Assembly (NCBI GenBank): GCA_000092065.1
Contig: CP000586.1
Length of the DNA stretch: 64,000 nt
Origin: Ostreococcus lucimarinus
Lineage: Eukaryota
Direction: 5' to 3' (one strand)
Part shown: piece by piece, positions 3,001 to 63,110 of the stretch
Layout: every line of letters starts with the position of its first letter
Position numbering within the stretch: the first letter of the stretch is position 1
Translations under genes and position numbers: made by a program
Notes under the pieces: generated by a model
What the model saw: only the letters and a program-made list of their open reading frames with translations
Told to the model about the DNA's origin: nothing
Database searches by the model: none

Positions 3001-6000
3001 ACAGACGCCGCATTGCGGGCGTCCACGCGATTGTATCAGCTAACGCAGCGGCATCTGCAGCTTCCACTCCGCCAAGTTTCTTCGCTTGCGACGCAGCGTC
3101 GACCAAACTCTTCTCAAGCACACCTTCCTGCGCGGACGCATAAAGCGTGCTCTCGATTAGAGGTGGCACCTTCAAATACTTTTCGAGAACTTCACGGATT
3201 GAATGCCGTTCGACGTCGCTTCGAAGACGCTCACCGAGTACTCTGAAACCATCCGCGGCGAGCGCTTCGTAGCCGTTGCTTTGGCGATTCGCCCAGCGGA
3301 ACAAATCTCTCGCCGTGATGTAACCATCTTTACCGGCGAAGGCGCGAGACCCTTGACGCCGTCTTTGTAACTCGCGCATGACCTCGACAAGCTTGACGCA
3401 ATACGAAGGTGCGATTTCACATCGAGTGTGCAGAATTGTTTTCAGCTCTTCGTCGGGAATGTCACCTATATGAAGCTCCATGAACCTGTTTCTAAACGCC
3501 TTGCTGAGCACTTTACGACCGCCGTACACCGCCCCGGGTGGATTTTGTGTGGCAAATAGCATAAAGTGCGGATGCGGACGGATGGTCTCCTGCAACTCAG
3601 GTACAAACAGTTCTCTGTTGTCATCTAAAAGTCGGTTAAGCGCTTCAAGCACGTCCGTAGGCGCCAAGTTGAGCTCGTCAAGCACGACCCAGTAGCCTTT
3701 GCGAACAGCTTGCACGAGCGCTCCCTCCTGGAACACGAGTTGACCTGCGAGTGGAAGAAAGTAGCGTCAGAGTCAGTGTCGTTGGCGTCAGCGTCGACAA
3801 AACAAATGCAACCAAACGTGCCCGCTTGTTTCCGCGCGGCGAATTTCGGGACTCAAACCGTTCACGTCCTGGGTGCCAGGTTCTACGCCAGCGTTCGGCG
3901 ACGCAAACACGTAAGATATCCGCGTTGATGTTCGGCCACTTTCCGAGCCCCCGTTCCCACGGAATTAGGGAAGACGGCTAACGAACTAGTGGCCGGAAAA
4001 ACGGGACGAAGAAAGTTTGCGCACGCACCTGTCTCGTCGGTAACGTAAGTGCCGAGGTACTCTTGCAAATCCGTATGCTCGTGATTGTTGATGCGCATGA
4101 AGCGATGCCCGGTTCTGTGCGCGAGGTACTCCACGAGCGACGTTTTACCACTCGACGTGGGTCCTTGTAAGAGAATCGGATGCCGACGTAACAACACCGC
4201 GCGAGCCAGATTCGATAAGTGACCGCGAACGGTCTCCGTGACGACGTATTTGCCCTCTTCGGGATTGACACGAGGAAGATCACCCGCCTCCACCCAGAAA
4301 TGTTCCAACAGCACGTGCGTGTCCCCAGCCGGCGGGTTAGGGGGCGTTTTCATAGCCTGCGAATGCGAAACGTTAGTGTCAGTATCAGTGCGCGCAAACA
4401 TATGTAAGTGTAGAAAAACGTCTTCCAAAACCTCAGGAGATCAGAGATGGAATAGGTATTGTTTTTCGTGAATGTACCGTCGCTGGCGTGATACGCCCGA
4501 TCTCGCTAAGCCCATAAGCAGTGGGCCTCGAGAGCGTGAGCGACGGAAAAGTCGCGCAATCGATTGAATGTAAAAGTGGCGTACCTTTAGAGCGGCTCCA
4601 CGGAGAAGATGCTTGACCATGAGCTTTTCGAGAATGACGCCACTTTCGGTTTTGAGTAGCGTCAGAAAAGACATCGCGAAGCCGTCGAACAAAGCCCTTT
4701 GTAAGCCGTATATCCCAGTCGCTGCGCGCACGTATTCGCACGCGCGCGATAGCGTACGCAATGAGTACTGTGGCTTTTGATCCGCACTGTCCAGCAACGT
4801 CGTGTGAGCCGCTTGTCGGGCAGCGATGTAAAAGTCGACAATGTCGTCAACCTGCACCCCTGGAACGCCGTGCAAGTACGTGTCGACGATCATCGCCAGA
4901 TCATCTCGTCCCTCGGTCTCTCCGGCGTAAATTTCCACAAACCTGTGTTTCAACGCTGTTGGTAGATCTCTCTTACCTACATCGGTCGCGGGGTTCATGG
5001 CGCCGAAGAGGCGGAATCGAGGGTGGCGTGGAATCGGCTCGCCGTCGCCGCGCTCGCTCAGCACAATGCTGCCGGACTCGCTTTCTAAAATCCCTCCGAG
5101 ACGTTCAAGAGTCTCCGCTGGGGCTAAATTTATTTCATCAAGAAGTATCCAATGTCCTTCGCGAAGGGCGGTGATGAGTGCGCCTTCGACGAAAGCGAAA
5201 ACTGGCCCACCATTTTTGCTTGCGTTCGTGGAATGCTCCACGACGCTCAGATCACGCTCAAAGTCTCGCCACGCCGCGACGAGATCGTCCGACAACACGC
5301 TCGTCGTCTTCCGACGTTTATTTGCCTTTTTACCATCATCGGTATTCTCACGAGATTTTGCGTCCTGCGCGGCCTCCGCTGCAAGCTTTGCGACGCGTTC
5401 GACGCCGGCTCTAAATGCATGCAACAAGTGCGTCCACTTTTTCTTTTCTGCGTATCGCGATATGCGCGTGAGAAATTCCGCGTTGGAAGCCGAAGGGAAG
5501 GTTCGGTTGAACGCGTTATGAAACTTCGGAAGCAAAGGAAGGCACAAATGTCGCGCGCTTACCGGTTTGAAACCGCCGAGAAAATCCGCAGACTCGGACT
5601 GATTGCTCAAGTTAACGACGGTGAGCGGCGCGCCCGTGAGACGCGCGAGCTCCTGAACTAGGGCCGTTTTACCAGTCCCAGTCTCGCCCACGAGTAACAC
5701 GGGCTCGGTGAGCTGGACCGCCGCCGCCGTGCGCTCCAACAGGCGAGATGCATGTCCAGTCCTGGACCACTTGGCGCCGCGAGCGTTCGTTTTTCCGACG
5801 GGTAACGCGCACCGCCCAATCGTCACCGATTGGTGGCTCTCTTGAATGGTGGGCTTGTGCAACCGATCCGTCGCGTCTGCGGTGTCTTCCGCCGGAAGCC
5901 CCCACGTCGCAGCGATCATCTTCAACACTCGACGTCGACCTGGACCTGCGGGCAGCATGCCCGCGAGCACATCCGCGGCTTCCTCGTAAGCCGCCGCTCG

Positions 6001-7779
6001 AAGTTGCGGCGGCGCCGCCTTGCCCGGCTGCAATAACGCGAGTTCGTGCCTGCGAAGCGCCTGAATGCGTCGCGCCCAACGAATTAAATCTCTCAACGTA
6101 AAGGGACGACCAGCGTGCACGCGCGCTAACGCATGGTTGACGTCATTCGCTTGAGCTTCTAATCCAGACGCCGCGCGATCGAAGCGCGCGTCGTCGCTCG
6201 TCGCCTCCTGAATGGTGACGTCTTGCTCGGAGATCTCCCCAAGACCGGCGGCCTCGCCCGCGGCCGCGCCGCCTTGACCGCACAAACTTTGCACCTGACG
6301 AACTGTCGCCAGCATTGATTGCGCGAGCGGCGCCAAGTTTGGATACAAGCCGCAAAGAATCGCCGTCGCCTCGTCGCCGCGCGGCGGCTCGACGACGACG
6401 CGCGTCCACAGTCCGGAAAGCGGGTCCGCGCTCGCCGATGTCGACCGTCCGGCCTCGGTGGTGATTGAACCAAACAGTTGAAATCCAGGCGCGGCCTGAA
6501 TGCTCTCGCCGCGCCCCGGGACGTAAAGCCTGCGCTTCTCTAAAAGCGGCACCAGCGCGGAGAGCACCTCGAACGGCGCGAGATCGACGTCTTCGATGAG
6601 CACCCAGACCCCTCTCGTCACCGCCTGCGTCAACGCTCCGGGCTGCCACTTGAACTCGCCTGGGGCGGCGCCACACACGTACGCGCCGAGTAATGACTTC
6701 GAATCAGTTTGCGCGTCCAAGTGCAGGGTGACGAAATCGCCGTTGCCTGTCACGCGCGCCACCTCCTCGAGCGCGGCGGATTTTCCGCAACCGGCGGGAC
6801 CTTCGAGCAAGACGGGTCGGTTTCGGCAGAGCGCCAACGCGACGGCGGCGAGATTCCGGCGTGCGCTTTCGGTGTAAATCATCGGCGGCTTTTGTTCGCG
6901 CCCACTCGAACTCGCGTCGTCGGCGCCGCGCCGCCGTAACTCGACGCCGCCGACGCGCACGTATCCTTTCGCGGGCGCGGCGAAGTCGTCGACTCGGGAT
7001 AAATCCGCGGCGCCCAGAAAGTCCTCGTCGTCCGCGCCTGCGGACTCGCCGCTCGCTCGGACGCGCCCCGGATGTAACCAAAACATCGCGCGCGCGTTCG
7101 CAAACTCTAAATTTCGCGCCTCTCTCCGCGCTCCGTACTCGTGAAACGCCTCGTCGTCGCGCGTCGTCGCGCGACGCATCGCGTCCAACCCCTTCGCGCT
7201 CACCCCCAGCGCGAGCGCCACGAGCGCGCACGCGTTATACCTCACCTCATCGCTCTCCGCGCGCAACCACCTCGTCGCGGACGACCAATCGAACCTCTCC
7301 CGCGTCGACGGACACGCGCGCCAAATCGCCTCCAACGCTCGCGTCGCCGCGCTCGTCTCGCTCGCCTCCATCCCTCGCGTCTTCGCGTGCACCGCGCCCA
7401 CGACCCCATCGAACGCCCCCCGCGTCAAAATCTCCTCGCACGCCCTCGCGCAGTGCGGCAGCAGCTCGCACGCGACGCCCAGCGCCACGCACGTCGTCGC
7501 CGCGTCCCGCTCGCCGCGCGCGCTCGCGTCGCCCGCGTCGCCCGCCGCGGCCAGCATCCGCGCTCGCGCCGCCGACGCCGCCGCCATCGTCGTCCGCGGG
7601 CGCAGCACCGCGTCCAAGACGTCCGCGTCCGTCGCCCTCGACGCGTCGATCGCCCCGCGCGCGTCGTCGCGTCGCGCGTCGTCGTCGTCGCGCCTCTTCT
7701 CGCCGCCGCCGCCGTCGTCGTCGCGCGTCGTCGCGTCGTCCCCGCGTCGCGCGCGCGCGTCGCGACGCCGCGTCGACAT
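1..7779 (-). CDS. MDN1: Midasin (MDN1/Rea1) AAA+ ATPase, N-terminal tandem AAA ring region. Partial: the 3' end lies beyond the window start. Proposed structure: exons 7779..4585, 4356..4029 and 3744..1.
   Basis: Repeated AAA modules on the minus strand: VLLEGPAGCGKS, VLLVGETGTGKT, ILLQGPTSSGKTSLVEYLA, and LVFQEGALVQAVRKGYWVVLDELNLAP near 3660-3740. The ENANLCSPTVLDRLNPLLE module sits near 200-330, so the frame is open to position 1. The 7857 start of the ORF track is GTG; the first ATG is at 7779. Frame changes at ~4430 and ~3770-3880 are explained by two GT-AG introns. Confidence 0.85.
3745..4028 (-). other. Predicted spliceosomal intron 2 of midasin: 284 nt, phase 1, donor ACAG|GTGCGT, acceptor CTTTCTTCCACTCGCAG|GT.
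   Basis: The exon ends ...HEHTDLQEYLGTYVTDETG. After the intron the frame gives (G)QLVFQEGALVQAVRKGYWVVLDELNLAP, reconstituting the conserved midasin AAA3 motif. The unspliced ORF reads through into a non-homologous tail and a stop at 3883. Confidence 0.6.
4357..4584 (-). other. Predicted spliceosomal intron 1 of midasin: 228 nt, phase 0, donor AAG|GTACGC, acceptor TTCGCATTCGCAG|GCT.
   Basis: The upstream exon ends ...KHLLRGAALK and the ORF then runs into a stop at 4441. The downstream frame resumes with AMKTPPNPPAGDTHVLLEHFWVEAGDLP...LLQGPTSSGKTSLVEY. The boundaries are canonical and a pyrimidine tract precedes the acceptor. Confidence 0.55.
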
Positions 7780-8134
7780 CGCGACGCGCGCGCGCCCGCG
7801 AACGATCGCGCGTCCGACGCCGTTCGCCGCGACGCGCTCGCGCGCGCGCGAATGCACGCCTCGGAAGCGCGGTCGTTCGGTCGTTCGCGGTCGAGCGCGC
7901 GCGCGCCCGTAACAAAAACGAAATCATCGGCGTTCGCGTCGGCGGAGAGGCGACCGCGCGGTCGGGACGTCGCGATCCAGCGGGCGCGCGCACTGCGTCG
8001 ATGTCGTTCTATTTTCGCGCGCGGTCGAGCGCGCCGACGCGTCGAGTTCGCCGTCGCGCATGCATTCGTTCGCGCGCGCGCATTCATTCACTCCGTCTGT
8101 TCGTCTCGCGACGACGGACGGCCGCGACGGGGCC

Positions 8135-8326
8135 ATCGGTTGGTTTTCATATATATAGCTCAATTGGAGGTACTATACGTTCTCGGTGTGTATATAAAGA
8201 CGGTACGTCTACCCATGTACCGTATTCGATCGGTTGGTTTTCATATATACAGCGCAATTGGAGGTACTATACGTTCTCGGTGTACATATAAAGACGGTAC
8301 GTCTACCCATGTACCGTATTCGATGG
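8135..8326. repeat. AT-rich tandem duplication: 2 copies of a 94-bp unit, ~96% identical. It lies in the divergent intergenic region between midasin and the G-patch gene.
   Basis: The unit atcggttggttttcatatata.agc.caattggaggtactatacgttctcggtgt..atataaagacggtacgtctacccatgtaccgtattcg appears twice in direct succession. Each copy carries a TATATA/TATAAAG stretch and the 7-bp dyad ACGGTAC-N10-GTACCGT. Confidence 0.8.
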
Positions 8327-8426
8327 AACGGCGCGCGCCGCGCGCGCGCACGCGCGCGACGACGTCTTCACTCGCGCGCGCGCGGGACGCGCGCGACGCG
8401 CGCGGGACGCGGGCACGCGCGACGCG

Positions 8427-10772
8427 ATGGTGCGCACGTCTCGCGCGGCGTCGACCGCGGCGTCGTCGGCGAACGGCGACGTCTCGCACGTGACGCGCGG
8501 GACGGCGGTGACGCGCGACGCGACGGCGCCGCGCCGCGAGACGGCGACGGAGGCGTCCGATACACGACGGGTTCGCGGCGCGCGCGCCGGTGGGTTCGTC
8601 TGGGGGCGCGTCGACGCGGTCGGCACCGCGGCGGGGTTCGAGCCGGGGAGGTTTCGGTCGACGCGCGAGGCGCGCGCGACGACGACGCGAGGCGACGGTG
8701 CGGCGACGGATTACATGGACGAGGACGAGCGCGAAGAATACGAGAGCGTGACGCTGCGGGCGAGGGCGAGGTACGATACGTTCGGGGAGGGCGCGCGGGA
8801 GGCGCACAGGGCGATGGCGTGGGATCGGGGGGGGGCGGGGGGGTCGGCGAGCGAGACGCTGGCGCGGTCGGCGGCGGTGACGGATTTGTTCGTCGCGCCG
8901 CGCGAGGACGCGGTCGGGGCGCGGTTGTTGCGGTGCATGGGGTGGCGACGAGGGCGCGTGGGCGGCGGGACGGGCGGTGGGGTGGCGGTGGACGAGGACG
9001 AGACGCCGGCGTACGTCGCGGATCCGAAGAACGATAGGCGAGGCGTCGGGTACGACGCGTTCGCGGGGGCGGAGGAGTTTCGCGACGCGGCGACGCGGCG
9101 GAAGCGCGAGATGGAGCGGGAGAACGCGGGGTTGACGCGCGGGCGCGCGCGGGGGGAGGCGTTCGGCGTGGGGGTGTTCGAGGAAGAGGACGAGGCGCTG
9201 TACACGGAGGACGAGCCGAAATTGAACGAGTACGCGTTTGAGATGGAGGAGGAGGAGGAGGAAGACGAGTCGACGCGCGATCCGAGGGCGCGCGGGAAGG
9301 GCGCCGTGCTGGCGCTCGGCGCGGCGTTACCGAACGATTGTCTCGTGCGCGGGTTTCGCGTGTCGAGCGACACGCTCGCGCCGCCGAAATGGTTCGCGCC
9401 GCCCGTCGTGCCTCGCGACTTTCGGCCGCGCGCCGCGGCGACTTTGAAGGCGTCGATGAAGGCGAGCGCGATGGCGGCGTCGCAGCCCGAACTTCCACCG
9501 AAAGCGCCGCCGCCGGCGAACGAGGAGCGTAAAAAAGTCATCGACACTCTCGCCGCGTTCGTCGCCAGGCACGGGAAAACTTTCGAGGACATGGCCAAGG
9601 CGCGGCAAGGCGAAGACGACGAAAAGTTTTCCTTTCTCTTCGGCGGTAGAGATTCGGGATATTACAAATGGCGTTTGGCCACGGCGATGATCGAACAAAA
9701 CTCCGAAGCCGTGGCGCCACCCGCACGCCGCGCGCGACCGCTCGGAATGGAGGAGCGCGCGAGAATTCTCGGTGAGACGCCCTTGCCCGCGCGCGCCGGC
9801 GGCGGGGCGACGGACGCGCCGGCGCCGGCGCCGGCGCCGAGGCAAAAGTTGAGCATCGACGGCATCGCTGCCGACGATCGCGAGCGCATACAAAAGCTGT
9901 TGAGCAAAACGTTCACGTCAGGTGGCGTCGTGCAAACCGCCAAGGTTGAGAAAGTTGGTCTGCACGTCCTCGAGAAGAGCGCGCCGAAGCCCGCGCCGAA
10001 CGAGGAGGAAGCGGCGGCGCGCGCGGACATGGTTTCGCGCATGCCCATCGTTTCCGCGCGCAACACCATTGACTGGGCACCTGAACCACTGGTGTGCAAA
10101 CGATTCGGAATTCAAGATCCGTTCGCCAACAGAGCGCGTCCGGATACTCAAGAGTATAAATTCCGCACCGACGTCTTGGCGCTCGACGCGACGAGCGCCG
10201 CCGCGCTCGCGAACGCGCCCAAGTATCTGGACGTGCCCCCACCGCCGTCGGCTGTACAATCGACGACGCGTGCTATTCCGCCGCCACCTCCCCCATCGTC
10301 GACATCAGCGCCGCTCCCACCGCCGCCGCCGCCGCCCCGCGCCGCGACAACGATGGTCGAGGTGCCCCCGCCGCCGCCGTTTGTCGAAAAGCCGATGGGG
10401 CTGTTCAAAGCCATCTTCGAAAACTCAGACGACGACGTGGAAGCTGAAGAGGAAGCGAACGAAACGGAAGCGGACCTGGACGCCATCAAGGCGGCGCTTT
10501 CGACGCGATCGGACCCGGCGCCCGTCGAGGAGAAGGCTCGGCAGACCGAGGGACCTGTGTGGTCGTCGGCAGTCATGACAAACCCCGCGGCGGCGAGCGA
10601 GCGGGATTCCGAGAAGCGCAAGCGCTCGAAAAAGAAGAAAGAGAAAAAGGAGAAGAAGGAGAAAAAGCGTTCGAAAGATAGCCGTAGACGACGCAAAAAA
10701 CATAGAAAGCGTTCGAGACGCAACTACGATTCGTCGTCGTCGTCGTCGTCGAGTTCGTACACTAGCGATTGA
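8427..10772 (+). CDS. G-patch domain protein (GPATCH1/SUGP-like). It has a central SURP-like motif and a Lys/Ser-rich C-terminal tail.
   Basis: The G-patch-like motif GARLLRCMGWRRGRVGGGTGGGV is present. So is the SURP-like IDTLAAFVARHGKTFEDMAKARQGEDDEKFSFLFGGRDSGYYKWRL. The C-terminal WAPEPLVCKRFGIQDPF motif is followed by KRKRSKKKKEKKEKKEKKRSK...SSSSSSSS. The start is ATG. Confidence 0.6.
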   Translation: MVRTSRAASTAASSANGDVSHVTRGTAVTRDATAPRRETATEASDTRRVRGARAGGFVWGRVDAVGTAAGFEPGRFRSTREARATTTRGDGAATDYMDEDEREEYESVTLRARARYDTFGEGAREAHRAMAWDRGGAGGSASETLARSAAVTDLFVAPREDAVGARLLRCMGWRRGRVGGGTGGGVAVDEDETPAYVADPKNDRRGVGYDAFAGAEEFRDAATRRKREMERENAGLTRGRARGEAFGVGVFEEEDEALYTEDEPKLNEYAFEMEEEEEEDESTRDPRARGKGAVLALGAALPNDCLVRGFRVSSDTLAPPKWFAPPVVPRDFRPRAAATLKASMKASAMAASQPELPPKAPPPANEERKKVIDTLAAFVARHGKTFEDMAKARQGEDDEKFSFLFGGRDSGYYKWRLATAMIEQNSEAVAPPARRARPLGMEERARILGETPLPARAGGGATDAPAPAPAPRQKLSIDGIAADDRERIQKLLSKTFTSGGVVQTAKVEKVGLHVLEKSAPKPAPNEEEAAARADMVSRMPIVSARNTIDWAPEPLVCKRFGIQDPFANRARPDTQEYKFRTDVLALDATSAAALANAPKYLDVPPPPSAVQSTTRAIPPPPPPSSTSAPLPPPPPPPRAATTMVEVPPPPPFVEKPMGLFKAIFENSDDDVEAEEEANETEADLDAIKAALSTRSDPAPVEEKARQTEGPVWSSAVMTNPAAASERDSEKRKRSKKKKEKKEKKEKKRSKDSRRRRKKHRKRSRRNYDSSSSSSSSSYTSD

Positions 10773-15336: not shown

Positions 15337-16674
15337 TCAATCGTCGCCTTCGTCGTCTTCGTCTCTCGCGCGTCGATTCCACCAAAACAGCACAAAGTTT
15401 GCGACGACGTATCTCGCGTCGATCGAAATGTTCGTCGTACACTTTGTGAAGAGCACGAAAAGCGCGGTCTGGTAGAGCGCTGCCGCCGTGCGATCGCTCG
15501 ATCGAAGTCGATGACAACACCGCTCGAAGACAACGCCCGCGGTGTTCGCTCCGAAGAAAACAAACCATGCCTTGGACTTCAAGCCGTGAAAGAGCAGAGA
15601 AAACGCCATGACGACGACAACGGAAATCACGCTCGATCCCAGTGGGCGGTAGAGTAAACGCACGAACGCCTCGTGCAGACTGCAGTGAAACTTTCTCCAA
15701 AACGTACCGAACGACGTTCCCGACTTTAGCCAATCGACGCTGACGTCGCGAATGACAACCTGACCGTCGATGACGGCCAGCGCGTGACTAAGATTGAAGA
15801 TCAACGTTGGCCCGGCCCACATCGCCGTCGTGTGCGTCCACGCGTGTGATATCTTTTCAAAGAGCGACGCGTTGGCGACGTCGGCGAAAGGATCGTAATA
15901 CGTCCGATGCGCAAACTCGAGTAACGCGTACCACGTCAAGGAGTCTACGGTCTCCAACGCCGCGTACAACCACCGCCGTCGATCGTGATCACACCGGTGT
16001 CGCTCGAACTCTCTGTAAAAGCAGAAAGGTCCCTTCGCTCTCAGAGGCGGGTACAGCACGTATCTCACGAATTTTCCGAGGTCTGGCGTCGCCGACTCCT
16101 CGACGCACTCTACGCCGAAACACATGACGCGCAGCAAATCGAAGCGACACGCGCGGTAACAGTTGAACGTCGTCGCGTTCATAATTCCGACGCGCGCGAC
16201 GTCCCCCGGTTCGCTTTCCAATTCATCCAAGACCAGATACGCCAAGACGCACGCGACCCAGACGTACGTGCGTTTCCGCCGCGCGCTAAACGGTGCCGCG
16301 CGCACCGCCACCGCGAACGCGTAAAACGCGCACACGAACGCCAGCACCCCGATCGTCCACCGCGCGCCGTGCGCCATCATCGCGACCGCGATCGCCATCG
16401 CCGTCGCCGCGCGTCGTCCGCGTCGTCCCGCGCCGACGTACGCCGCCGTCGACGCCACCTCCCACGCCAACGGCCCGCCCTCGACGTACTCGAACACGCG
16501 CGCGTGAAACGTCCACCGCCGTCCGATCCGATCGTCATCGCGCGCGCGCGCGCCGCCGCGCGTCGTCCGCGCCAACGTCGCCGCGCACGCCGCCGCCGCG
16601 CACCACCGCGCGTTCGCCGTCCACCCGAACCGATCGCGTCGTCGTCGTCGCCGCGGTCCGTCGTCGCGATCCAT
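15337..16674 (-). CDS. MBOAT-family membrane-bound O-acyltransferase.
   Basis: Multi-pass hydrophobic protein. MBOAT signatures: VLYPPLRAKGPFCFYREFE (the ...AGPI.RY.E.. region) and FWRKFHCSLHEAFVRLLYRPLGS (the WRRWHISL..W.RDY.Y.PLGG region with the invariant His). The 16698 start of the ORF track is GTG; the first ATG is at 16674. Confidence 0.65.
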   Translation of the reverse strand: MDRDDGPRRRRRRDRFGWTANARWCAAAACAATLARTTRGGARARDDDRIGRRWTFHARVFEYVEGGPLAWEVASTAAYVGAGRRGRRAATAMAIAVAMMAHGARWTIGVLAFVCAFYAFAVAVRAAPFSARRKRTYVWVACVLAYLVLDELESEPGDVARVGIMNATTFNCYRACRFDLLRVMCFGVECVEESATPDLGKFVRYVLYPPLRAKGPFCFYREFERHRCDHDRRRWLYAALETVDSLTWYALLEFAHRTYYDPFADVANASLFEKISHAWTHTTAMWAGPTLIFNLSHALAVIDGQVVIRDVSVDWLKSGTSFGTFWRKFHCSLHEAFVRLLYRPLGSSVISVVVVMAFSLLFHGLKSKAWFVFFGANTAGVVFERCCHRLRSSDRTAAALYQTALFVLFTKCTTNISIDARYVVANFVLFWWNRRARDEDDEGDD

Positions 16675-16869
16675 CGCGCGTCGTCGGGTCGCGGTCACCG
16701 TCGCGCGCCGTCGCGCGCGCTCGGCGTCGCGCGGTGACGCGTCGCGCGCGTCGAGCCGTCGCGTCGACGCCGAGCCGTCGCGTCAAACCCAAAAACGACG
16801 ATTCGCGTCCCAGGGCCGCGATCGCGCGCGATCGATCGGGGCGTCTTATCCGTCCCGCACATCGGCGCG

Positions 16870-16871
16870 AT

Positions 16872-16902
<31 letters not shown>

Positions 16903-18483
16903 ACGGCGACGCGGTGCGCGCGCGACGCGCGCGCGCGACGGGGAGGGACGACGACGGCGACGCGCGCGCGCGCGCGCGCGACGACGGCGGCGGCGACGCG
17001 CGACGTCGACGTCGTCGTCGTCGGCGCGGGCGTCAGCGGCCTGTCCACGGCGCACACGCTGAAGATGAAAAAGATGCGCGAGGCGACGGTGCTCGTCACG
17101 GAGGCGCGCGAACGCGTCGGAGGGAACGTCACGAGTCGATCGGATGGGACGTACACGTGGGAGGAGGGACCGAACTCGTATCAGCCGGGGGATGCGATCT
17201 TGACGCTGGCGTGCGACGCGGGGATGCGCGACGACATCTTGCTGGCGGATCCGGCGAGCAATCGGTACGTGCTGTGGGACGGGAAGCTGCGGATTTTACC
17301 GCACAGCATTGAGAGCGCGGTGTTGGGGGATTTTTTGACGTGGCCGGGGAAGATTCGGGCGGGATTGGGGGCGATCGGAATCAGGCCGCCGGCGCCGGGC
17401 AAGGAGGAGAGCGTGAAGGAGTTCGTGAGCAGAAACTTGGGGACGGAGGCGTTCGAACGTCTGATCGAACCGTTTTGCTCGGGCGTGTACGCGGGTGATC
17501 CCGCGGCGCTGTCGTCCGTGGCGGCGACGGGGCGCGTGCAACGACTCGAACCGCTCGGCGGGTCGCTCGTCGCCGGCGCCATCATGGCGCAAAAGGAGGC
17601 GGCGCAGAACAAGAAACCGCGCGATCCGCGCCTTCCCGAGGTCAAGGGCCAAACCGTCGGCTCGTTCCGCGGTGGTTTGAAGACGTTCCCGGAGGGTTTG
17701 GCCAAGCAGCTCGGCGACGACGTCGTCAAGTGCAACTGGAAGCTCGTCGGCGTCTCGAAATCCGCCGAGGGCGGGTACGAGTGCGCGTACGACACCCCAG
17801 AAGGGCCGCAAACGGTGAGAACGAAGTGTTTGTTGCTCACCGCGCCGGCTTACGTCGCGGCCGAGATGGTTAAGGACATGGCTCCCGCGGCGGCGACGGC
17901 GCTGAACAAGTTTTACTACCCACCCGTCGCGTCGGTGACGATTTCCTACAAGAAGGATTCGTTCCGCCTCGACGGCACCAGCGCGTTACCCGAAGGCGGC
18001 CTCACTGGCTTCGGTCAGCTCCACCCGCGCTCGCAAGGCATTCGCACGCTCGGCACGATTTATAGCTCGAGCCTGTTCAAGGACGACAAGCGTCAACCGG
18101 ACGACGAGTTCATGATTTTGAACTACATCGGCGGCGCGCGCGACGTCGCGATTAAAGACTTGAGCGAGGAGGAGCTCGTGAAGCAAGTCCACGAGGACGC
18201 CTTGAAGACAATCTTGAAGCCCGGTACGCCGCTTCCCAAGGTTGTCGGCGTCAAGGTTTGGGAAAAGGCCATCCCGCAATTCAACCTCGGCCACTTGGAC
18301 GTCCTCGCCGAAGCCGAGAACGCGTTAACCGCCGCCGACTGCGGCGAAAAAGACGGCTTGTTCCTCGGCGGCAACTACACCGCGGGCGTCGCGTTGGGTC
18401 GATGCGTCGAGTTCGGCATCGAGCAAGCGGACGAAGTCGTGGCGTACTTAAACGCCGCATCCAAGAAGGCCGTCGCGGTGTGA
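16870..18483 (+). CDS. PPOX: Protoporphyrinogen IX oxidase (PPOX/HemY) with a poly-Thr/Ala/Arg presequence.
   Basis: FAD-binding VVVVGAGVSGLSTAHTL...VLVTEARERVGGNVTS is present. PPOX-like conservation runs throughout. A TGTAA motif lies 10 nt past the stop. Confidence 0.85.
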
Positions 18484-26272: not shown

Positions 26273-27619
26273 TTAATCGTACTCCACACCGGCGAACGCG
26301 AGGCCCAAAGCCGGTGCGGGCGGAGCCGCGGCCCGACGCTCGCGCGACCGGGCGATTCTGAGCAGGACGTCGTCGTCGCCGGCGAAGACGGCGGCTTCGC
26401 GAATCGTCGTGGCGACGAGACAGCGAATCAACTTGCGCAAGAAACGGTCTGCGACGAGCTCGATGACGATGACTTCGTCGGCGTCGATGTCGGTGATGTC
26501 GATGGTGTCGTCGTGAGCGTCGTTTCGGCTTTTCGAGCGCCGAACGCCGGCGGTGACTTTGGAGTCGTTGTCGCTGTCGGCGCCGTCGCCGGGCGGCGAA
26601 GGCAATTTCGCCTCGAACGCCCTCGCGACGCGAAACGTGACGACGGAACTCTTCCCAGGCGGCGTGCCTCGCGCGAAGGCGTGCATATCGATCGGCGCGT
26701 TCGCGCACTCGCGCACGAGCGCGGCTAAGATTCGATCGATGATGCGCGCGTCCAAATCAGCCTTCGGCGTGCGCGACTCGCGAAACGCCTGATTCTTCGG
26801 CAAGCAATACACGTACCGTCGACTCTTCGCCGCGAATGTCGCGTGAAACGCCGAGCCCGTCTCGCGCACGTCCGACACGCGCAACAGACCCGCTTTGCCC
26901 GGCGCTGAATCCTCATTCACCAACCGCTCAATCTCCGCCGCGGAGATGGCGTCCGACTTGCTCCAAAGCGATACGCAGCTGGCGAGCGCGCTCACGCCGC
27001 GATCCGTCCTCCCCGCCGACGGCGTCGGGCGCGTCTTATCCAACACCGGTCGCAGCGCCAACTGCAACGCCGCCGACACCGACGCGCACCCCGGCTCGAA
27101 CGTCCCGTCGTACGCGAAATCCCTCGACGCGTTCCACGCGAAGCCCGCGAACGACGGCCCGTGATACGTACACTTCGCCGCGAACGTCCTTCGTCCTTCC
27201 CTGCGTCTTCGCCCCCCGCTCGCGCCCGCGTCGTCGCCGCTCGCGAACACGATTTCCGCCGCGCTCAATCCGAGCTCGCGCAGGCACGCGTCGCCTCGCA
27301 CGCACCGCCTGAAGAATCGCTCGACGCCGCGCCACGGCCTGTCGTCCGCGAACGCGCTCTGCTGCACCGGGTCCCAGCGCCCGACGTTGAACTCGCATCC
27401 GGCCGTCGCGCCGTCGTCGAGGACCAGGGTTTGACACGGATGTCGCGTCGCGACGCGCGCGTCGTCGCTCGCGTTCGCGTCGCTCGCGTCGCTCGCCCGC
27501 GACGTCGCGCCGACCGGCGGCGGGACGCGCGCGGTCGCCATCGACCCGCGACGCGCGCGCGCGCGCGCGGCGCGCGCGCGCGACGTTCGAGACGCTCGCG
27601 CGACGCGCGCGAGACGCAT
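26273..27619 (-). CDS. tRNA pseudouridine synthase, TruA/PUS1 family.
   Basis: The catalytic motif AGRTDRGVSALASCVSL matches the RTD.GVHA consensus. ...AKSRRYVYCL matches the ..R.Y.Y motif. The N-terminal KCTYHGPSFAGFAW matches the Y.G..F.G.Q-type start. The start is ATG. Confidence 0.6.
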   Translation of the reverse strand: MRLARVARASRTSRARAARARARRGSMATARVPPPVGATSRASDASDANASDDARVATRHPCQTLVLDDGATAGCEFNVGRWDPVQQSAFADDRPWRGVERFFRRCVRGDACLRELGLSAAEIVFASGDDAGASGGRRRREGRRTFAAKCTYHGPSFAGFAWNASRDFAYDGTFEPGCASVSAALQLALRPVLDKTRPTPSAGRTDRGVSALASCVSLWSKSDAISAAEIERLVNEDSAPGKAGLLRVSDVRETGSAFHATFAAKSRRYVYCLPKNQAFRESRTPKADLDARIIDRILAALVRECANAPIDMHAFARGTPPGKSSVVTFRVARAFEAKLPSPPGDGADSDNDSKVTAGVRRSKSRNDAHDDTIDITDIDADEVIVIELVADRFLRKLIRCLVATTIREAAVFAGDDDVLLRIARSRERRAAAPPAPALGLAFAGVEYD

Positions 27620-27716
27620 GCGCGCGCGCGAGGACGCGCGGGCGCGGCGTCGCGCGCCGATGTGCGACCGCGCGCGCGTCCCGGTCGTTCGCTAACGGTC
27701 GTCACTCGACGCCGCG

Positions 27717-28172
27717 ATGCGCGACGCCGACGCCGCGAGCGACGGCGACGACGGCGCGAGCGCGTCGGAAGAGTCGGACTCTTCGTCCTCGGGCGCGCTC
27801 GGGGACGTGGGCGCGCGCGAGCGCGATGAATTCTTCGACGAGGGCGCGGATGCGGCGGACGAGCGCGCCGTCGTTCGCGCGCTCGGTGGCGCCGACGCGG
27901 CGACGACGGACGCGCGCCTGTCCTGCCCGGGGTGCTTCGCGCTGGTGTGCGTGCTGTGTCAGCGACACGAGCGGTACAAGGGGCAGTACCGCGCGGTGTT
28001 CGCGCGAGGGGTGGAGACGTCGACGACGAGCTGTCTGCGGCCGACGGACGACGACGGCGACGGCGCGGACGAAAGGTACAGGGAGGTGACGTGCGCGCAG
28101 TGTGGGACCGTAGTCGCGGTGCAGGATGATGATGACGTGTATCATTTCTTTAACGTGTTCAGCGCGGGGTGA
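27717..28172 (+). CDS. Small acidic protein with a C-terminal Cys/His motif resembling the E2F-associated phosphoprotein (EAPP) C-terminal domain.
   Basis: The motif LSCPGCFALVCVLCQRHERYKGQYRAVFARGV...VTCAQCGTVV is present. It follows an Asp/Glu/Ser-rich N-terminus. The start is ATG. Confidence 0.45.
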   Translation: MRDADAASDGDDGASASEESDSSSSGALGDVGARERDEFFDEGADAADERAVVRALGGADAATTDARLSCPGCFALVCVLCQRHERYKGQYRAVFARGVETSTTSCLRPTDDDGDGADERYREVTCAQCGTVVAVQDDDDVYHFFNVFSAG

Positions 28173-37538: not shown

Positions 37539-37600
37539 TCGTCGCTGTTACGGTTTTTTTTACGCGTCGGCGGCGGTCATCGCGGCATCGCGCGACGCGC

Positions 37601-39457
37601 ATGCGACGCGCGTGGCGGTGCGCGCGCGTCGCGACGCGCGCGATGCCGACGGCGACGACGCGCGCGAGCGGCGCGAGCGTCGCGGCGCGCGCGCAGCGGA
37701 CGACGACGACGACGACGACGGCGGCGGGGACGCGATGGGGACGGACGGGCGGGAGCCAGCGACGGGGGCGCGCGGCGACGGCGCGCGCGCGCGCGGTGGG
37801 GACGGGAACGCCGAGCGTGTGCCCGGGGTGCGGGGTCGGGCTGCAGCGCGAGGACGCGAACGCGCCGGGGTACTACGTGACGCCGAGACGCGCGCTGGAG
37901 GCGGCGGCGGCGGCGGAAGAGAGGAACGACGAGGACGACGCGGAGGAAGCGAGCGAGGCGTTCGAGTTCGAGGACGGCGACGACGATGTGGACGACGACG
38001 CGATCGACGAGACGTACGTGCCGCCGGGGTTCGAGTTGATGGATGAAGAAAACGTGAGCGGGTTGGACGCCGAGGAGGCGGCGGCGCGGTTGGACGCGTT
38101 GAATTCTTTGTTTGACGACGACGAGGACGACGAGGCGACGAAACGACGGGCGAAGAAAAAGCGTGGACCGCCGACGGTGGTGTGCGCGCGGTGCTTCGCG
38201 CTGCGAACGAGCGGACGGGTGAAGAACGCGGCGGCGGAGGTACTGTTGCCGTCGTTCGATTTCGCGCGCGTCGTCGGCGATAGTTTCGAGCGGTTGACGG
38301 GCGAAGGCCGCGCCGTGGTTTTACTCATGGTCGATTTACTGGATTTCGACGGATCGTTTCCGGTGGATGCCATCGACGTCATCGAGCCGTACGTGGAGAA
38401 GGGCGTGGTGGACGTCTTGCTCGTGGCGAACAAGGTGGACTTGATGCCCACGCAGTGCACGCGCACGCGCTTGACTTCGTTCGTGCGACGGCGGTCGAAG
38501 GATTTCGGGCTTTCGCGATGCGCGGGCGTGCACTTGGTGAGCGCCAAAGCGGGGATGGGGGTGGCGATTTTGGCGCAACAGCTCGAAGACATGCTCGATC
38601 GAGGGAAAGAGGTGTACGTCGTCGGCGCGCAAAACGCGGGTAAGAGTTCGTTGATCAACCGCTTGAGTCAAAGGTACGGCGGCCCGGGTGAAGAAGACGG
38701 AGGCCCGATCGCGAGTCCGCTTCCTGGGACGACGCTCGGGATGGTGAAGCTCCCGGCGCTGTTGCCGAACAGTTCAGACGTCTACGACACGCCCGGATTG
38801 TTGCAACCGTTTCAACTCTCTTCGCGATTGAACGGCGATGAGATGAAGGTCGTTTTACCGAACAAGCGTGTCACGCCGCGCACGTATCGCATCGAAGTCG
38901 GTGGCACGATTCACATAGGTGGTTTAGCGCGCATCGACGTCTTGGAATCGCCGCAACGCACGCTATACCTCACCGTGTGGGCGTCGAACAAGGTCGCCAC
39001 GCACTACGCGCGCACGACAAAGGGAGCGGACACGTTTCTCGAGAAGCACGGAGGGACGAAGATGACGCCTCCGATCGGAGAGGCTCGCATGAGACAGTTT
39101 GGCGCGTGGGGGTCACGCGTCGTGAACATCTATGGCGAAGACTGGCAAGCGTCGACGCGAGACATCTCCATCGCCGGGCTCTGTTGGATCGGCGTTGGGT
39201 GCAATGGGAACGCTTCGTTCAAGATTTGGACGCACGAGGGCGTGCAAGTCGTCACTCGCGAAGCGTTAGTTCCCGACATGGCCAAGAGTTTAATGTCGCC
39301 CGGTTTTTCCTTTGAAAACGTCGGCGGCGATTCGTCAAACAAGCGTCCGAACGATCGCGCGAATCGGCAACGCGGTCGAGGCGGCGGCGGCGGCGGCGGC
39401 GGTCGAGGCGGTCGAGGCGGTCGAGGCGGTCGAGGCGGTCGATCGCGGTCGTCATAG
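37601..39457 (+). CDS. NOA1: NOA1/YqeH-type circularly permuted GTPase with an N-terminal CxxC zinc-finger and a C-terminal RGG/GGR repeat tail.
   Basis: The motifs are permuted, with G4 before G1: LLVANKVDL then VVGAQNAGKSSLINRL, followed by TPGLLQP. CPGCGVGLQ sits near the N-terminus. The C-terminus is GRGGGGGGGRGGRGGRGGRGGRSRSS. Confidence 0.8.
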   Translation: MRRAWRCARVATRAMPTATTRASGASVAARAQRTTTTTTTAAGTRWGRTGGSQRRGRAATARARAVGTGTPSVCPGCGVGLQREDANAPGYYVTPRRALEAAAAAEERNDEDDAEEASEAFEFEDGDDDVDDDAIDETYVPPGFELMDEENVSGLDAEEAAARLDALNSLFDDDEDDEATKRRAKKKRGPPTVVCARCFALRTSGRVKNAAAEVLLPSFDFARVVGDSFERLTGEGRAVVLLMVDLLDFDGSFPVDAIDVIEPYVEKGVVDVLLVANKVDLMPTQCTRTRLTSFVRRRSKDFGLSRCAGVHLVSAKAGMGVAILAQQLEDMLDRGKEVYVVGAQNAGKSSLINRLSQRYGGPGEEDGGPIASPLPGTTLGMVKLPALLPNSSDVYDTPGLLQPFQLSSRLNGDEMKVVLPNKRVTPRTYRIEVGGTIHIGGLARIDVLESPQRTLYLTVWASNKVATHYARTTKGADTFLEKHGGTKMTPPIGEARMRQFGAWGSRVVNIYGEDWQASTRDISIAGLCWIGVGCNGNASFKIWTHEGVQVVTREALVPDMAKSLMSPGFSFENVGGDSSNKRPNDRANRQRGRGGGGGGGGRGGRGGRGGRGGRSRSS

Positions 39458-52935: not shown

Positions 52936-53093
52936 GCGTCGTCGTCCGGCGTCGACGCGCGCGCGGCGCGGCAGCCGAGGCACGCCATCCGGACGAACGC
53001 GTCGCGCGTCGCGTCGGCGCGCGCGCGCGGCGACGCGCGCGCGTGTGCGGCGACGCGCGGCGCGACGCCGCCACATCATCGCGCGTCCGAACG

Positions 53094-54641
53094 ATGTCGA
53101 CGCCGCGCAAGCGCGCGCGCGCCGGCGACGGCGCCGGCGCGCGCGACGACGACGACGACGACGGCGACGACGACGGCGGCGGCGACGCGCGACGACCGCT
53201 CGTCGTGGACGCGCGCGACGCGACGCTGCCCGACGCGGCGCTCTGGGACGAACACGCCGAGCGCGGCGACGCCGACGCGCTGTTCGAACACGCGATCGCG
53301 CCGCTCGACGCGGCGACGTTCGCGACGTGCGTCGATAGACGCGCGGTGTGCGTCAAGCGCGGCGGACGGGCGCACTACGGGTCGTGGATGACGATGGAGG
53401 CGGTGACGCGGGCGACGCGCGACGGCGAGGCGCGGTACGGCGTGGATTTAGACGTGACGTCGTACGTCGACGGCGTGCGAAGGACGCATAATAGGAATAG
53501 CGACGCGGGACGCGAGGCCGACGACGAGGACGACGATGTCGGGGAATTGGTGGACGCGGACGCGGTGTTGACGCGGAGGTTCGGCGAGGAACGACGGTCG
53601 GTGCGGTTGTTGCATCCGCAGACGCGGTGCGACGCGACGTGGAAGATTTTAGCGACTCTGGAGCGGTATTTCGAGTGCGCGTGTGGGTGCAACGTGTACG
53701 TGACGCCGGCGAGTTCACAAGGGTTCGCGCCGCATTACGACGACATCGACGCGTTCGTGTTGCAGATCGAAGGCGCGAAGCGGTGGCGGGTGTACGAGCC
53801 GTTCGAGGACGAGACGCACCCGAGGACGAGCTCTAGGAACTTCACGCAAGAGGAGATCGCGACGCAGCGCGTGGTTTTCGACGACGTGCTCGAGGCTGGG
53901 GACTTTTTGTACCTGCCGCGCGGTTGGATTCACCAGGCGGAGTGCTCGTCGTCGACGCACAGCGTGCACGCGACGTTATCGACGAATCAATCCAACGCGC
54001 CGGCTGATGCGCTCGAAATCGCGTTGAACAACGCGCTGGCTTCCACGATCGACGGTCGCGCGGAGTTACGAAGGAGTTTCGTTTCCACGTTGAACGACGA
54101 GCGTCGTCGCGACGCCGCGTTGGAGGGACTGGGAGAAGAGTTGCGCGCGTTTGCGAGCGAGCTCCAAGGCGACTTCGGCGCGGCGCTCGTAGAGCACGCG
54201 TACGCGTCGCTCGAGGCACGGTTCATGATGCAACGGTGCCCACCGCCGGATTCACACTTGCTGCGATCGAAAGCGCGGTGCACCGGAGACGTCGCCGCGG
54301 CTGAGCTGCGGAGCGGCGCGAGAACGCGAGTGGCGTCGCAAATCGAAGGCGCGCCGTTTTCAATTTTACGAGAGAGCCCGGCGACGACGTTGTTTCATCC
54401 ATTTCAAAATCGCCGCGACGGCGCGCACGTGCGCGTGCTCGGCGTCGATAGCGCCGACGAAGACCGACTCGGTCGCGTCGTCGTGCCGAGCGACGTCGAC
54501 GACGAGCGTCTCGACGAGCTTCTGGACGCCGTGCGGTCGGGCGACGCGCTCGAAATCGCAAAAACGAACTTTCGCGAGAACAACTTTCTCGAGCTCGTGT
54601 GCGAGCTCGTTCGGTGCGGGGCGTTGGCGGCGTTAGATTAG
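53094..54641 (+). CDS. RIOX: Ribosomal oxygenase NO66/MINA53 (RIOX)-like JmjC-domain protein.
   Basis: CNVYVTPASSQGFAPHYDDIDAFVLQIEGAKRWRVYEP...VLEAGDFLYLPRGWIHQAECSSSTHSVHATLST matches the NO66/MINA53 JmjC core, with the HxD...H iron-binding residues in place. The upstream part of the ORF-track ORF, from 52455, is Arg-run junk over the (GTC)n. The first ATG in the homologous region (MSTPRKRARAG, NLS-like) is at 53094. Confidence 0.75.
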   Translation: MSTPRKRARAGDGAGARDDDDDDGDDDGGGDARRPLVVDARDATLPDAALWDEHAERGDADALFEHAIAPLDAATFATCVDRRAVCVKRGGRAHYGSWMTMEAVTRATRDGEARYGVDLDVTSYVDGVRRTHNRNSDAGREADDEDDDVGELVDADAVLTRRFGEERRSVRLLHPQTRCDATWKILATLERYFECACGCNVYVTPASSQGFAPHYDDIDAFVLQIEGAKRWRVYEPFEDETHPRTSSRNFTQEEIATQRVVFDDVLEAGDFLYLPRGWIHQAECSSSTHSVHATLSTNQSNAPADALEIALNNALASTIDGRAELRRSFVSTLNDERRRDAALEGLGEELRAFASELQGDFGAALVEHAYASLEARFMMQRCPPPDSHLLRSKARCTGDVAAAELRSGARTRVASQIEGAPFSILRESPATTLFHPFQNRRDGAHVRVLGVDSADEDRLGRVVVPSDVDDERLDELLDAVRSGDALEIAKTNFRENNFLELVCELVRCGALAALD

Positions 54642-54773: not shown

Positions 54774-54949
54774 TGACTCCGGTGGGGTTCGAACCCACGC
54801 CCTTTCGGACCAGAATGTTACGTTGCGATTGTTCTCGCATGGTACGAAAGCGGGCGCGCGCGCGACTCGCGTCGCGCGCGTTGTTTTTCCCGTAGTTCCT
54901 CCTCGTGTTCTCCTTAATCTGGCGCCTTAGACCACTCGGCCACAGAGTC
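54774..54949 (-). tRNA. tRNA-Leu(AAG): tRNA-Leu (anticodon AAG), class II long variable arm, interrupted by a ~96-nt intron at the canonical 37/38 position.
   Basis: On the minus strand the 5' exon is GACTCTG-TG-GCCGAGTGGTCTAAGGC-G-CCAGA-TTAAGG and the 3' exon is T-TCTGG-TCCGAAAGGGC-GTGGG-TTCGAAC-CCCAC-CGGAGTC-A. The acceptor stem has 7 pairs (6 Watson-Crick, 1 G-U). The A box is TGGCCGAGTGG and the B box is GGTTCGAACCC. The discriminator is A. A TTTT run lies ~20 nt downstream. The exons are plus 54949..54912 and 54815..54774. Confidence 0.75.
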
Positions 54950-62721: not shown

Positions 62722-62947
62722 TCGGTTCCGACGCGCTCGACCGCGCGTCATCGTCTGCGTCTTCGTCGTCGCTCGTCCACGTCTTCGCGCGCGCTGAACC
62801 GTCGACACGACGACGGACGGCAGCGGCATCGCGTTCATCGATCGCGTCGCGCGCGTCGTACGCGAACGCCTCGAACGGCGGATTCATGCGTCGTCGTGTG
62901 CGACGCGACGCGAATCGAATTTGAAATCGCGTCTGAGAGTCGGACAT
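58907..62947 (-). CDS. CHD: CHD1-like chromodomain-helicase-DNA-binding protein: tandem chromodomains plus an SNF2 ATPase.
   Basis: The chromodomains are EKIVYCRAMK...EFCVKWEGVSHRRCSWE and YLVKWCGLGYAAATWE. SNF2 motifs are ILGDEMGLGKTAQ, DEAHKLKD and the helicase-C region LLSTRAGGMGITLTSADTAIIFDSDWNPQNDLQAMARCHRIGQ. The upstream part of the ORF-track ORF, 62948..63367, is Arg-rich junk. The first ATG after an AT-rich promoter island (MSDSQTRFQ) is at 62947; an alternative at 62887 is MNPPFEAF. Confidence 0.85.
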
Positions 62948-63110
62948 TCGGCGCGTGTACAAACGTATGTACAAACAGTGAAGACATATATACCACGAAT
63001 GTACACCAGTGTACGTATTGTGTGTACACGCACGCCCATATCGCGCGCGCGCGCGAACCGTCGTTTCGCGCGCGTCGACGTCGCGAGGCGACGGCACTCG
63101 CCGTCGCGCG
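62948..63110. promoter_or_regulatory. Compact bidirectional promoter/5'UTR region shared by the CHD gene (minus) and the amino-acid transporter gene (plus).
   Basis: This is a 163-bp interval between two divergent first ATGs. It contains an AT-richer island with repeated TGTACAAAC/TGTACA motifs (gtgtacaaacgtatgtacaaacagtg...gtacaccagtgtacgtattgtgtgtacacg) and a tatata stretch. Confidence 0.5.

Follow-up and report, generated by a model that had tools for sequence, protein, structure and literature searches.

We analyzed a tandem repeat located at positions 8135-8324 of a 64,000-nucleotide stretch of Ostreococcus lucimarinus contig CP000586.1 (assembly GCA_000092065.1; hereafter, the window), within the divergent promoter that separates the midasin gene from a homologue of GPATCH1/TGH. 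The 94-bp repeat is very probably a locally duplicated resident copy of a young, unclassified, non-autonomous, promoter-preferring mobile element, termed here E1. The dispersed and insertion-polymorphic nature of E1 is established with high confidence by core sequences that are 98-100% identical and occur within unrelated flanks in at least five other promoters of the same Mamiellales alga on metagenome contigs, and by insertion polymorphism at four of these other loci. The copy in the midasin/TGH promoter (locus A) is best read as fixed and locally duplicated, and the family as young, low-copy, and motif-associated. Our confidence in any particular mobilization mechanism or regulatory effect is low.

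Dispersed copies of the E1 core

Metagenome contigs of the Joint Genome Institute (JGI) were scanned with an exact 23-mer, AATTGGAGGTACTATAYGTTCTC, that is conserved in all copies of the element. The scan returned 14 contigs, seven of which represent locus A and seven of which carry the element within other flanks. The obtained sequences share a core of 86 bp with a GC content of 40% (TGGTTTTCATATATATAGCGCAATTGGAGGTACTATACGTTCTCAGAGTGCATATAAAGACGGTACGTCTACCCATGTACCGTATT), or about 110 bp when the GC-rich arms are included, and the cores of L003 (locus A), L045 (locus B), and L047 (locus E) are identical. The other copies are located between an HPAT/ShK glycosyltransferase gene and a Sua5/YrdC gene (locus B; L035, L041, and L045), upstream of a response-regulator gene (locus C; L039), at the 5' end of an ABC-F ATPase gene (locus D; L040), about 400 bp upstream of a RAD16/SNF2 gene (locus E; L047), and upstream of an HMG-box gene (locus F; L044, L083, and L089). 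Every copy examined is intergenic and 5' to a gene, and it occupies a divergent promoter at each locus where both neighbors are known (A, B, and F). Many contigs stop inside the element, as assemblers do at repeats. Contig L044 might be taken for another right flank of locus C, but a locus F allele whose left 116 nt have been joined through the repeat, probably as an assembly chimera, explains it better. A preliminary description of this DNA, made from the sequence alone, had proposed a search for dispersed copies of the 94-bp unit and had held in reserve a purely local slippage duplication of a unit that occurs nowhere else. The search was positive, and the copies at no fewer than five further loci with unrelated flanks, four of them with empty alleles, contradict the latter view.

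No third copy was detected in the 64-kb window, and no older or diverged copies were found in ~0.6 Mb of related sequence beyond those already known and the copies of a second subfamily, E2, at locus F (nhmmer with E1 and E1+E2 profiles). Among the viral contigs of IMG/VR, the 23-mer had no matches and a 16-mer had 24 matches, none of which reached past about 20 nt, as expected by chance; a viral (prasinovirus) origin was therefore rejected. A prokaryotic origin was rejected as well, based on the absence of any match in the prokaryotic genomes of GTDB. The contigs carrying haplotypes of the loci stem from Tara Oceans, other marine metagenomes in ENA, and JGI samples. The window encodes a chloroplast-type SecA, and the exact SecA protein occurs in 432 blocks of the public assembly collection; its identity is 54% to the protein of Bathycoccus prasinos and 69-75% to those of metagenomic relatives with the same gene order.

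Empty and filled alleles

Other haplotypes of loci B, C, E, and F were retrieved via the neighboring proteins, with contigs taken longest first. The obtained numbers of filled and empty contigs are not allele frequencies, because the longest contigs come first and filled alleles break assemblies, which biases the counts against filled alleles. At locus B, all eight contigs that reach the site are empty, including one from a 947-kb contig, and read ...TTTTTGTATGCGCAA followed directly by ACAGTCAGACG (in short form, ...GTATGCGCAA followed by ACAGTCAG). The filled allele of locus B reads ...TTTTCGTGTGCGCAC[core]GCGCACGCAGTCGGACG (in short form, ...GTGTGCGCAC[core]GCGCACGCAGTCGG), with a 6-bp duplication, GCGCAC, on both sides of the core. 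At locus C, 15 contigs are empty and read ...GGGGGCCATCGCGTGTGGGCAAAC AGTG CGATGACG (in short form, ...GGGCAAAC(AGTG)CGATGACG); the filled allele, ...GGGCACAC[core]CGATCGCG, has no duplication and has lost 4 bp (AGTG). Ten contigs of locus E are empty, and the filled contig diverges from them after GAAAAGTGACG, with an insert in which 24-28 nt that match the locus A left flank exactly come first, then the core, and then CGATGG.

The promoter of locus F has received at least three independent insertions. Fifteen contigs are empty at this locus, and three contigs carry E1, which is preceded by GGGCCATCGGT, ends in ...CCGTA, and is flanked by a direct duplication of ~36 bp. Subfamily E2 is present in plus orientation, the same as that of E1, in two contigs and in minus orientation in one contig. 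In one locus F allele with E2 (L082:1000-2000), the upstream gene encodes a TRIP4-domain protein, compared to EamA and GWD genes in L080 and L093-L102; the E2 copy at this synteny breakpoint could have arisen by ectopic recombination among copies of the element, or the contig could be a chimera assembled through the repeat.

Loci B and C have the 86-bp core with exactly the same two ends, and locus D agrees with them at the left end. Because the empty alleles have an intact motif (described below) and are the widespread state, the insertion is the derived event.

Target motif of the insertions

The empty sites of loci B and C both contain the 9-mer GCAAACAGT, and in both cases the element has been inserted inside it (GCAAAC^AGT) in the same orientation. 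That two independent insertions hit one and the same 9-mer cannot be explained by coincidence. An extended form of the motif, TATG[CT]GCAAACAGTG[CA]GA, is also present at a second place in locus C and, in reverse orientation, directly beside the three insertions at locus F. The extended motif was found in intergenic DNA only, and other occurrences of CAAACAGT in the sequence searched lie outside the extended context. The exact 9-mer does not occur elsewhere in the 64-kb window, where its one-mismatch matches appear at chance frequency. The extended motif has one instance in the window, TATGTACAAACAGTGAAGAC at 62962-62985, located inside the AT-rich island of another divergent promoter, and none of the other haplotypes compared at this site, which are three only, carries an insertion there.

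This second island (62940-63040) is embedded in a GC-rich divergent promoter with a minus-strand ATG at 62887 and a plus-strand ATG near 63112. It holds direct repeats of TGTACAAAC, five GTAC cores, ATATATAC, and the copy of the target motif, and it is nearly identical in the three other haplotypes. The island is not homologous to the element. Thus, the earlier statement that nothing else in the window resembles the repeat is borne out at the sequence level (blastn with a word size of 7, and nhmmer) but does not extend to base composition, since a second AT-rich island exists.

Copy-number variation at the home locus

Copy number at locus A was compared in 14 haplotypes, comprising the window, six contigs that encode an identical SecA (L001-L006), and seven contigs obtained by a DNA pattern scan (L036-L038, L042, L043, L046, and L048). 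The element is present at locus A in all 14 haplotypes. A single copy was found in L003, L005, L038, and L043, whereas L036 contains one copy and an inverted partial copy 55 bp away, and L048 is cut inside the element, so that its copy number is not readable. The remaining eight of the 14 haplotypes have two copies with four different periods, namely 94 bp in the window, 93 bp in L001, L002, and L042, 95 bp in L037, and 105 bp in L004, L006, and L046.

In the 93- and 94-bp units, the right arm is joined to the left arm (CGAT/GGT and CGAT/CGGT, respectively), giving the junction CGATGGT in the period-93 haplotypes. The 95- and 105-bp units extend into unique right-flank DNA and restart within a (TA)4 tract of the core. 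The inverted partial copy in L036 likewise breaks in this tract, which is thus a recurrent rearrangement breakpoint, and microhomologies of 2 bp are present at the duplication junctions. Since the junction types differ, at least two, and possibly four, independent duplications have occurred at locus A. The agreement between independent assemblies indicates that these structures are not assembly artefacts, and the 4-5% difference between copies within a haplotype indicates that the duplications are not brand new.

In a sister lineage represented by L007 (89% TGH identity and the same gene order), the syntenic site has no core, and in farther relatives only about 40 bp separate the start codons of midasin and TGH. 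The L007 promoter has a tandem duplication of its own (L007:3490-3800; roughly 180 bp) that contains GCGCGCCCGTAACA...AAATCAT together with two AT-rich stretches, which differ from each other and both end in T7-8ATT. A CCCGTAAC block is common to the midasin/TGH promoter of L007 and to positions 7907-7914 of the window. The midasin/TGH promoter seems to be duplication-prone in both lineages.

Organization of the repeat and its surroundings

Tandem Repeats Finder reported the repeat at 8135-8324 with a period of 94, 2.0 copies, 95% matches, 0 indels, and a score of 352, by far the strongest row in its neighborhood. Direct alignment of the two 94-bp units (8135-8322) yielded 90 identical positions out of 94, with four substitutions and no indels, in agreement with the two direct copies of ~96% identity given in the preliminary description. 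The AT-rich island was also confirmed, as the GC content of the repeat is 41.5% inside a far GC-richer interval. The interval had been described as otherwise above 75% GC, which holds for its right part (8323-8426; 84%) but not for its left part (7779-8134; 72%), and its length had been given as ~570 bp, whereas the distance from the midasin ATG to the TGH ATG measures 648 bp.

The left arm of the element is the GC-rich sequence GGGGCCATCGGT (8129-8140, plus strand). These 12 nt are also found ahead of the core at locus E (L047) and locus F (L083), whereas loci B, C, and D lack them. Core copy 1 (TGGTTTTC...CCGTATT; 8141-8226, plus strand; nhmmer E-value 4e-28) is the 86-bp AT-rich segment whose boundaries were taken from filled versus empty alleles of locus B, and it has four differences from the family consensus. 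The junction CGATCGGT (8227-8234, plus strand), composed of the first 4 nt of the right arm and the last 4 nt of the left arm, connects it to core copy 2 (8235-8320, plus strand; nhmmer E-value 3e-28), which has four differences from copy 1 and four from the consensus. The right arm CGATGGAACGG (8321-8331, plus strand) follows the core at loci A and E and aligns with the 3' part of subfamily E2 (AAATGGCAAAGG).

The TATA-like elements and the inverted repeat noted earlier were found in both copies. The putative TATA boxes directed towards TGH/GPATCH1 are TATATAAAG in copy 1 (8191-8199, plus strand) and ATATAAAG in copy 2 (8286-8293, plus strand). The (TA)4 tract TATATATA in copy 1 (8150-8157, minus strand) reads as a TATA box directed towards midasin, and its counterpart in copy 2 is ATATATA (8243-8249, minus strand). 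The 7-bp dyad ACGGTAC-N10-GTACCGT is located at 8200-8223 in copy 1 and at 8294-8317 in copy 2.

The flanking genes were correctly named as well. The left neighbor is the first, N-terminal open reading frame of the midasin gene (4441-7778, minus strand), which is transcribed away from the element and contains the Pfam domains AAA_5 and midasin AAA lid. The right neighbor is the GPATCH1/TGH homologue (8427-10772, plus strand) with the Pfam domains DUF1604 and Surp, and its named homologues are G patch domain-containing protein 1 and TGH. The midasin gene is called as three consecutive open reading frames of 1112, 172, and 4648 amino acids (window 4345-4487 and L001:19792-20518), and an AT-rich stretch (37% GC) at the first boundary suggests that frame changes or short AT-rich introns are present. 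A 12-bp indel polymorphism, CAAACGCGTCCG, is located at about 8089/8090, 50 bp to the left of the element, and is absent from the window and L005, compared to L001-L004 and L006. Across the window, the 5' gene ends and divergent promoters all reach ~78-86% GC with CG-rich low-complexity repeats (e.g., 7400-7800, 16400-17000, 27400-27800, 37600-37800, and 53000-53200), the gene bodies are 50-58% GC, and Tandem Repeats Finder lists 263 rows of short GC-rich repeats. The window also contains a tRNA gene of the class II type (54774-54949, minus strand; 42 bits in Rfam) with an insert of ~100 nt in the anticodon loop, which was missed by ARAGORN at default settings.

Conserved blocks and promoter position

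An ungapped comparison of 73 positions gave 79% identity between subfamilies E1 and E2. The blocks retained in both subfamilies are TATATAGCG, which includes the minus-strand TATA box, ATTGGAGGTA, and CATATAA.GACGG, which includes the plus-strand TATA box, and the segment ATATAAAGACGG is invariant in all 20 of the 20 distinct copies. The two opposed TATA boxes are thus the best-conserved parts of the element family. The plus-strand TATA box lies 141 nt upstream of the TGH ATG at 8427 in the proximal copy at locus A and about 150 nt upstream of the Sua5 ATG at locus B. Because the TATA boxes are conserved and the copies occupy 5' intergenic positions upstream of start codons, a contribution of the element to transcription initiation is plausible.

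The dyad is close to chance expectation, as 5.8% of shuffled versions of the 94-mer hold one of 7 bp or more. In L039, L044, and L036 it is disrupted with no compensating change, it is not conserved in E2, and the RNA fold z-scores range from -0.1 to -0.6 relative to shuffled sequences on either strand. A function of the element as an RNA or DNA hairpin was rejected on these grounds. A 6-bp inverted pair, CCATCG...CGATGG, is found in the arms of the element's long form, which occurs at loci A, E, and F, and the left arm of E1 resembles the reverse complement of the right end of E2. For these two reasons, the long-form arms may be degenerate inverted termini.

Proposed origin and mobilization of E1

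We propose that E1 is mobilized in trans by a process that would start from a break at or near the target motif. As the junctions vary from a 6-bp duplication at locus B to a 4-bp deletion at locus C and a ~36-bp duplication at locus F, this process is probably not a fixed-stagger transposase. Target-primed reverse transcription or break-repair copying would fit better than a cut-and-paste process, given the variable junctions, the specific target, the constant orientation at loci B and C, and the co-copying of the locus A flank to loci E and F. The flank carry-over fits copying of either DNA or a read-through transcript from locus A, and it also fits ectopic gene conversion instead of transposition. 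The tandem copies would have arisen later by unequal exchange or replication slippage. For periods 93 and 94, the breakpoints would presumably coincide with the 2-bp microhomologies of the arms, and for periods 95 and 105 they would fall within the (TA)4 tract. By adding 86 bp of AT-rich sequence with a pair of opposed TATA boxes to a promoter of ~80% GC, the element probably alters initiation of the neighboring genes, and the duplication would double the TATA and AT-rich dose.

Several observations weigh against the interpretation of E1 as a mobile element. The inserts at loci E and F carry 12-28 nt of the left flank of locus A, and locus A itself has no clean target duplication. The 'empty' site of L007 is too diverged to fix the junctions and keeps GGAACGG repeats that resemble the right arm. 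No complete classical transposable element signature is present, as E1 lacks terminal inverted repeats in the core (the only inverted pair being the 6-bp CCATCG/CGATGG), TG...CA ends, a poly-A tail, and a fixed duplication. The copy number is low, with six loci seen, and no autonomous partner turned up in the contigs studied, although no whole-genome search was made for one. The sampling of haplotypes is biased, with allele frequencies skewed against filled alleles.

The carried flank is central to a different account, in which the element would be a promoter cassette that moves by ectopic gene conversion or by the repair of breaks, rather than through a transposition enzyme. Breaks in a shared promoter module, GGGGCC...GTRTGSGCAAACAGTGMGAYGAC, would be repaired from a paralogous promoter that holds the insert, and a variable length of donor flank would be copied too. 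Such a process would explain why the core is joined at loci E and F by a locus A-type flank of 12-28 nt on its left and 6 nt or more on its right, and why the junctions are variable; moreover, the motif is common to the targets B, C, and F, and locus C also shares GGGGCCATCG and CGATG with the arms of locus A. However, loci B and C show no copied donor flank, and the right side of locus B has no homology to any known donor flank, so that homologous repair at this locus has nothing to pair with. The recurrence of the exact 86-bp ends at B and C, and of the left end at D, also argues against the cassette, as does the similar behavior of the diverged E2. We therefore consider this account unlikely.

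Two further explanations fare worse. The units might be genes for small non-coding RNAs, forming a family in which every member has a TATA box upstream of it, similarity is maintained by selection, and the tandem arrangement reflects gene duplication. The high identity of the copies across loci, the conserved TATA boxes, a T-run, and the resemblance of TAGCGCAATTGG to a tRNA D-arm/A box are in line with this proposal. However, an Rfam scan of 7800-8700 at E-values of up to 10 returned chance-level hits only, none of them over the element and none to tRNA, 7SL, or 5S RNA, and ARAGORN made no call with its defaults, while at thresholds relaxed to 60-80% its calls were inconsistent and fell for the most part in the GC-rich flanks. 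Fold energies no better than those of shuffled sequences on both strands, together with a sole hairpin that is neither conserved in E2 nor compensated in variants, point in the same direction, and the occurrence of most copies as rare insertion alleles that split a motif is unlike an essential gene family. An RNA gene family is thus highly improbable. The adjacency of the copies, the lack of a third copy in the window, and the 2-bp microhomologies at the junctions speak for local slippage that merely duplicated a unique promoter segment, but this has almost no chance of being the whole explanation; it is refuted as a full account by the unit's presence at the other loci with unrelated flanks and empty alleles, and it survives only as the second step, following insertion, in the history of the mobile element E1.

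A more specific proposal, which goes beyond the mobile element interpretation and is speculative, although conceivable, is that E1 acts as a 'mobile core promoter.' An 86-bp cassette with two opposed TATA boxes would be copied in a defined orientation into GCAAAC^AGTG by a process of sequence-specific cleavage and copying, either homing-like or target-primed, and would rewire initiation at the recipient genes. The midasin/TGH copy would then be a fixed master copy, and the polymorphism between one and two copies would be held by selection on expression.

Implications for Mamiellales genomes

The picoalgae of the order Mamiellales have genomes that are among the most compact of free-living eukaryotes. 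A recent preprint reports a concentration of Mamiellales transposable elements on two 'outlier' chromosomes (bioRxiv 10.1101/2025.04.21.649811). If E1 inserts into promoters of GC-typical, gene-dense regions such as the window, is polymorphic in the wild, and repeatedly rearranges in place, it would, as a tiny and recently active element, represent an overlooked source of regulatory and structural variation in abundant marine phytoplankton. Its link to one short promoter motif provides a handle on both the targeting activity and an uncharacterized promoter motif. In practical terms, the element breaks metagenome assemblies at these promoters, and it might serve as a strain marker, like the promoter length variants used in Bathycoccus (PMC11539686). 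If the 'mobile core promoter' proposal is true, the initiation of housekeeping and regulatory genes would be rewired in wild populations of a species that is among the smallest free-living eukaryotes.

Comparison with known elements

E1 is a previously undescribed element that fits no standard class. [quoted passage not shown] Besides a duplicated core promoter or enhancer module and a small duplicated non-coding element, the preliminary description had considered the footprint of a short mobile element such as a MITE or an introner-like element. The dispersed copies and the presence/absence polymorphism support the mobile element part of this suggestion; neither of the two named classes applies. 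A MITE in the strict sense was rejected because the core has no terminal inverted repeats, its ends TGGTTTTCATATA and, as reverse complement, AATACGGTACATG not being complementary, and because the junction lengths of +6, -4, and ~+36 bp at loci B, C, and F imply no fixed target duplication. An introner or 5'-UTR intron was rejected since all copies are intergenic and run from TG to TT on the plus strand (AA to CA on the minus strand), without GT...AG. A solo long terminal repeat is not consistent with an element that starts with TG, ends in ...CCGTATT rather than CA, and has no constant duplication length. A Helitron was dismissed based on the mismatch to the 5'-TC...CTRR-3' ends, the GC-rich insertion sites, and the duplications at loci B and F. 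A tRNA-derived short interspersed nuclear element (SINE), prompted by the A-box-like TAGCGCAATTGG and a B-box-like TTCGAT, was dropped on the strength of the Rfam and ARAGORN results given above, and the latter sequence also lies outside the element at locus B; with respect to SINE tails, variable duplications were seen, and the only tail-like sequence is AAAACCA on the minus strand.

Despite these rejections, E1 has features in common with several known systems. Like MITEs, it is very short, AT-rich, non-coding, located near genes, multi-copy (six loci), and presence/absence polymorphic (four loci with empty alleles), and its long form has the weak 6-bp inverted pair. It differs from MITEs in the core without terminal inverted repeats, in the variable duplication length, and in the association of insertion with one motif rather than with a 2- to 10-bp target of the transposase type. 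SINEs and site-specific non-LTR retroelements, such as R2-type elements and their short, internally deleted derivatives, resemble E1 in the absence of inverted repeats, the variable duplications and deletions, the sequence-specific target, the orientation specificity (seen at loci B and C), the co-copied flank reminiscent of transduction, and the minus-strand A-rich stretch TATGAAAACCA near one end. In contrast to these retroelements, E1 has no recognizable RNA polymerase III promoter, no tRNA, 7SL, or 5S head, and no poly-A or simple-repeat tail; at loci B and C it has two precise ends, with no variable truncation of one of them, and no partner long interspersed nuclear element is known.

Promoter-targeting transposons, such as the Drosophila P elements in heat-shock promoters, Tf1 of S. 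pombe, and Ty elements upstream of genes transcribed by RNA polymerase III, provide another parallel, as copies of E1 occupy 5' intergenic regions and divergent promoters and locus F was hit repeatedly. However, these transposons are kilobase-sized or have known enzymes, and they target chromatin or bound factors, whereas E1 splits a 9-bp motif. The last parallel comes from the population markers of Bathycoccus prasinos, where promoter length INDELs of 200/400/1400 bp and 700/2200 bp were described at a yrdC-domain gene and at TOC1, a response regulator, and were used as size markers without description of a repeated element (PMC11539686). Although Bathycoccus is another genus and the likeness is drawn by description and gene context only, loci B and C are located upstream of Sua5/YrdC and response-regulator genes, and in both cases natural promoter length variants are found in related Mamiellales.

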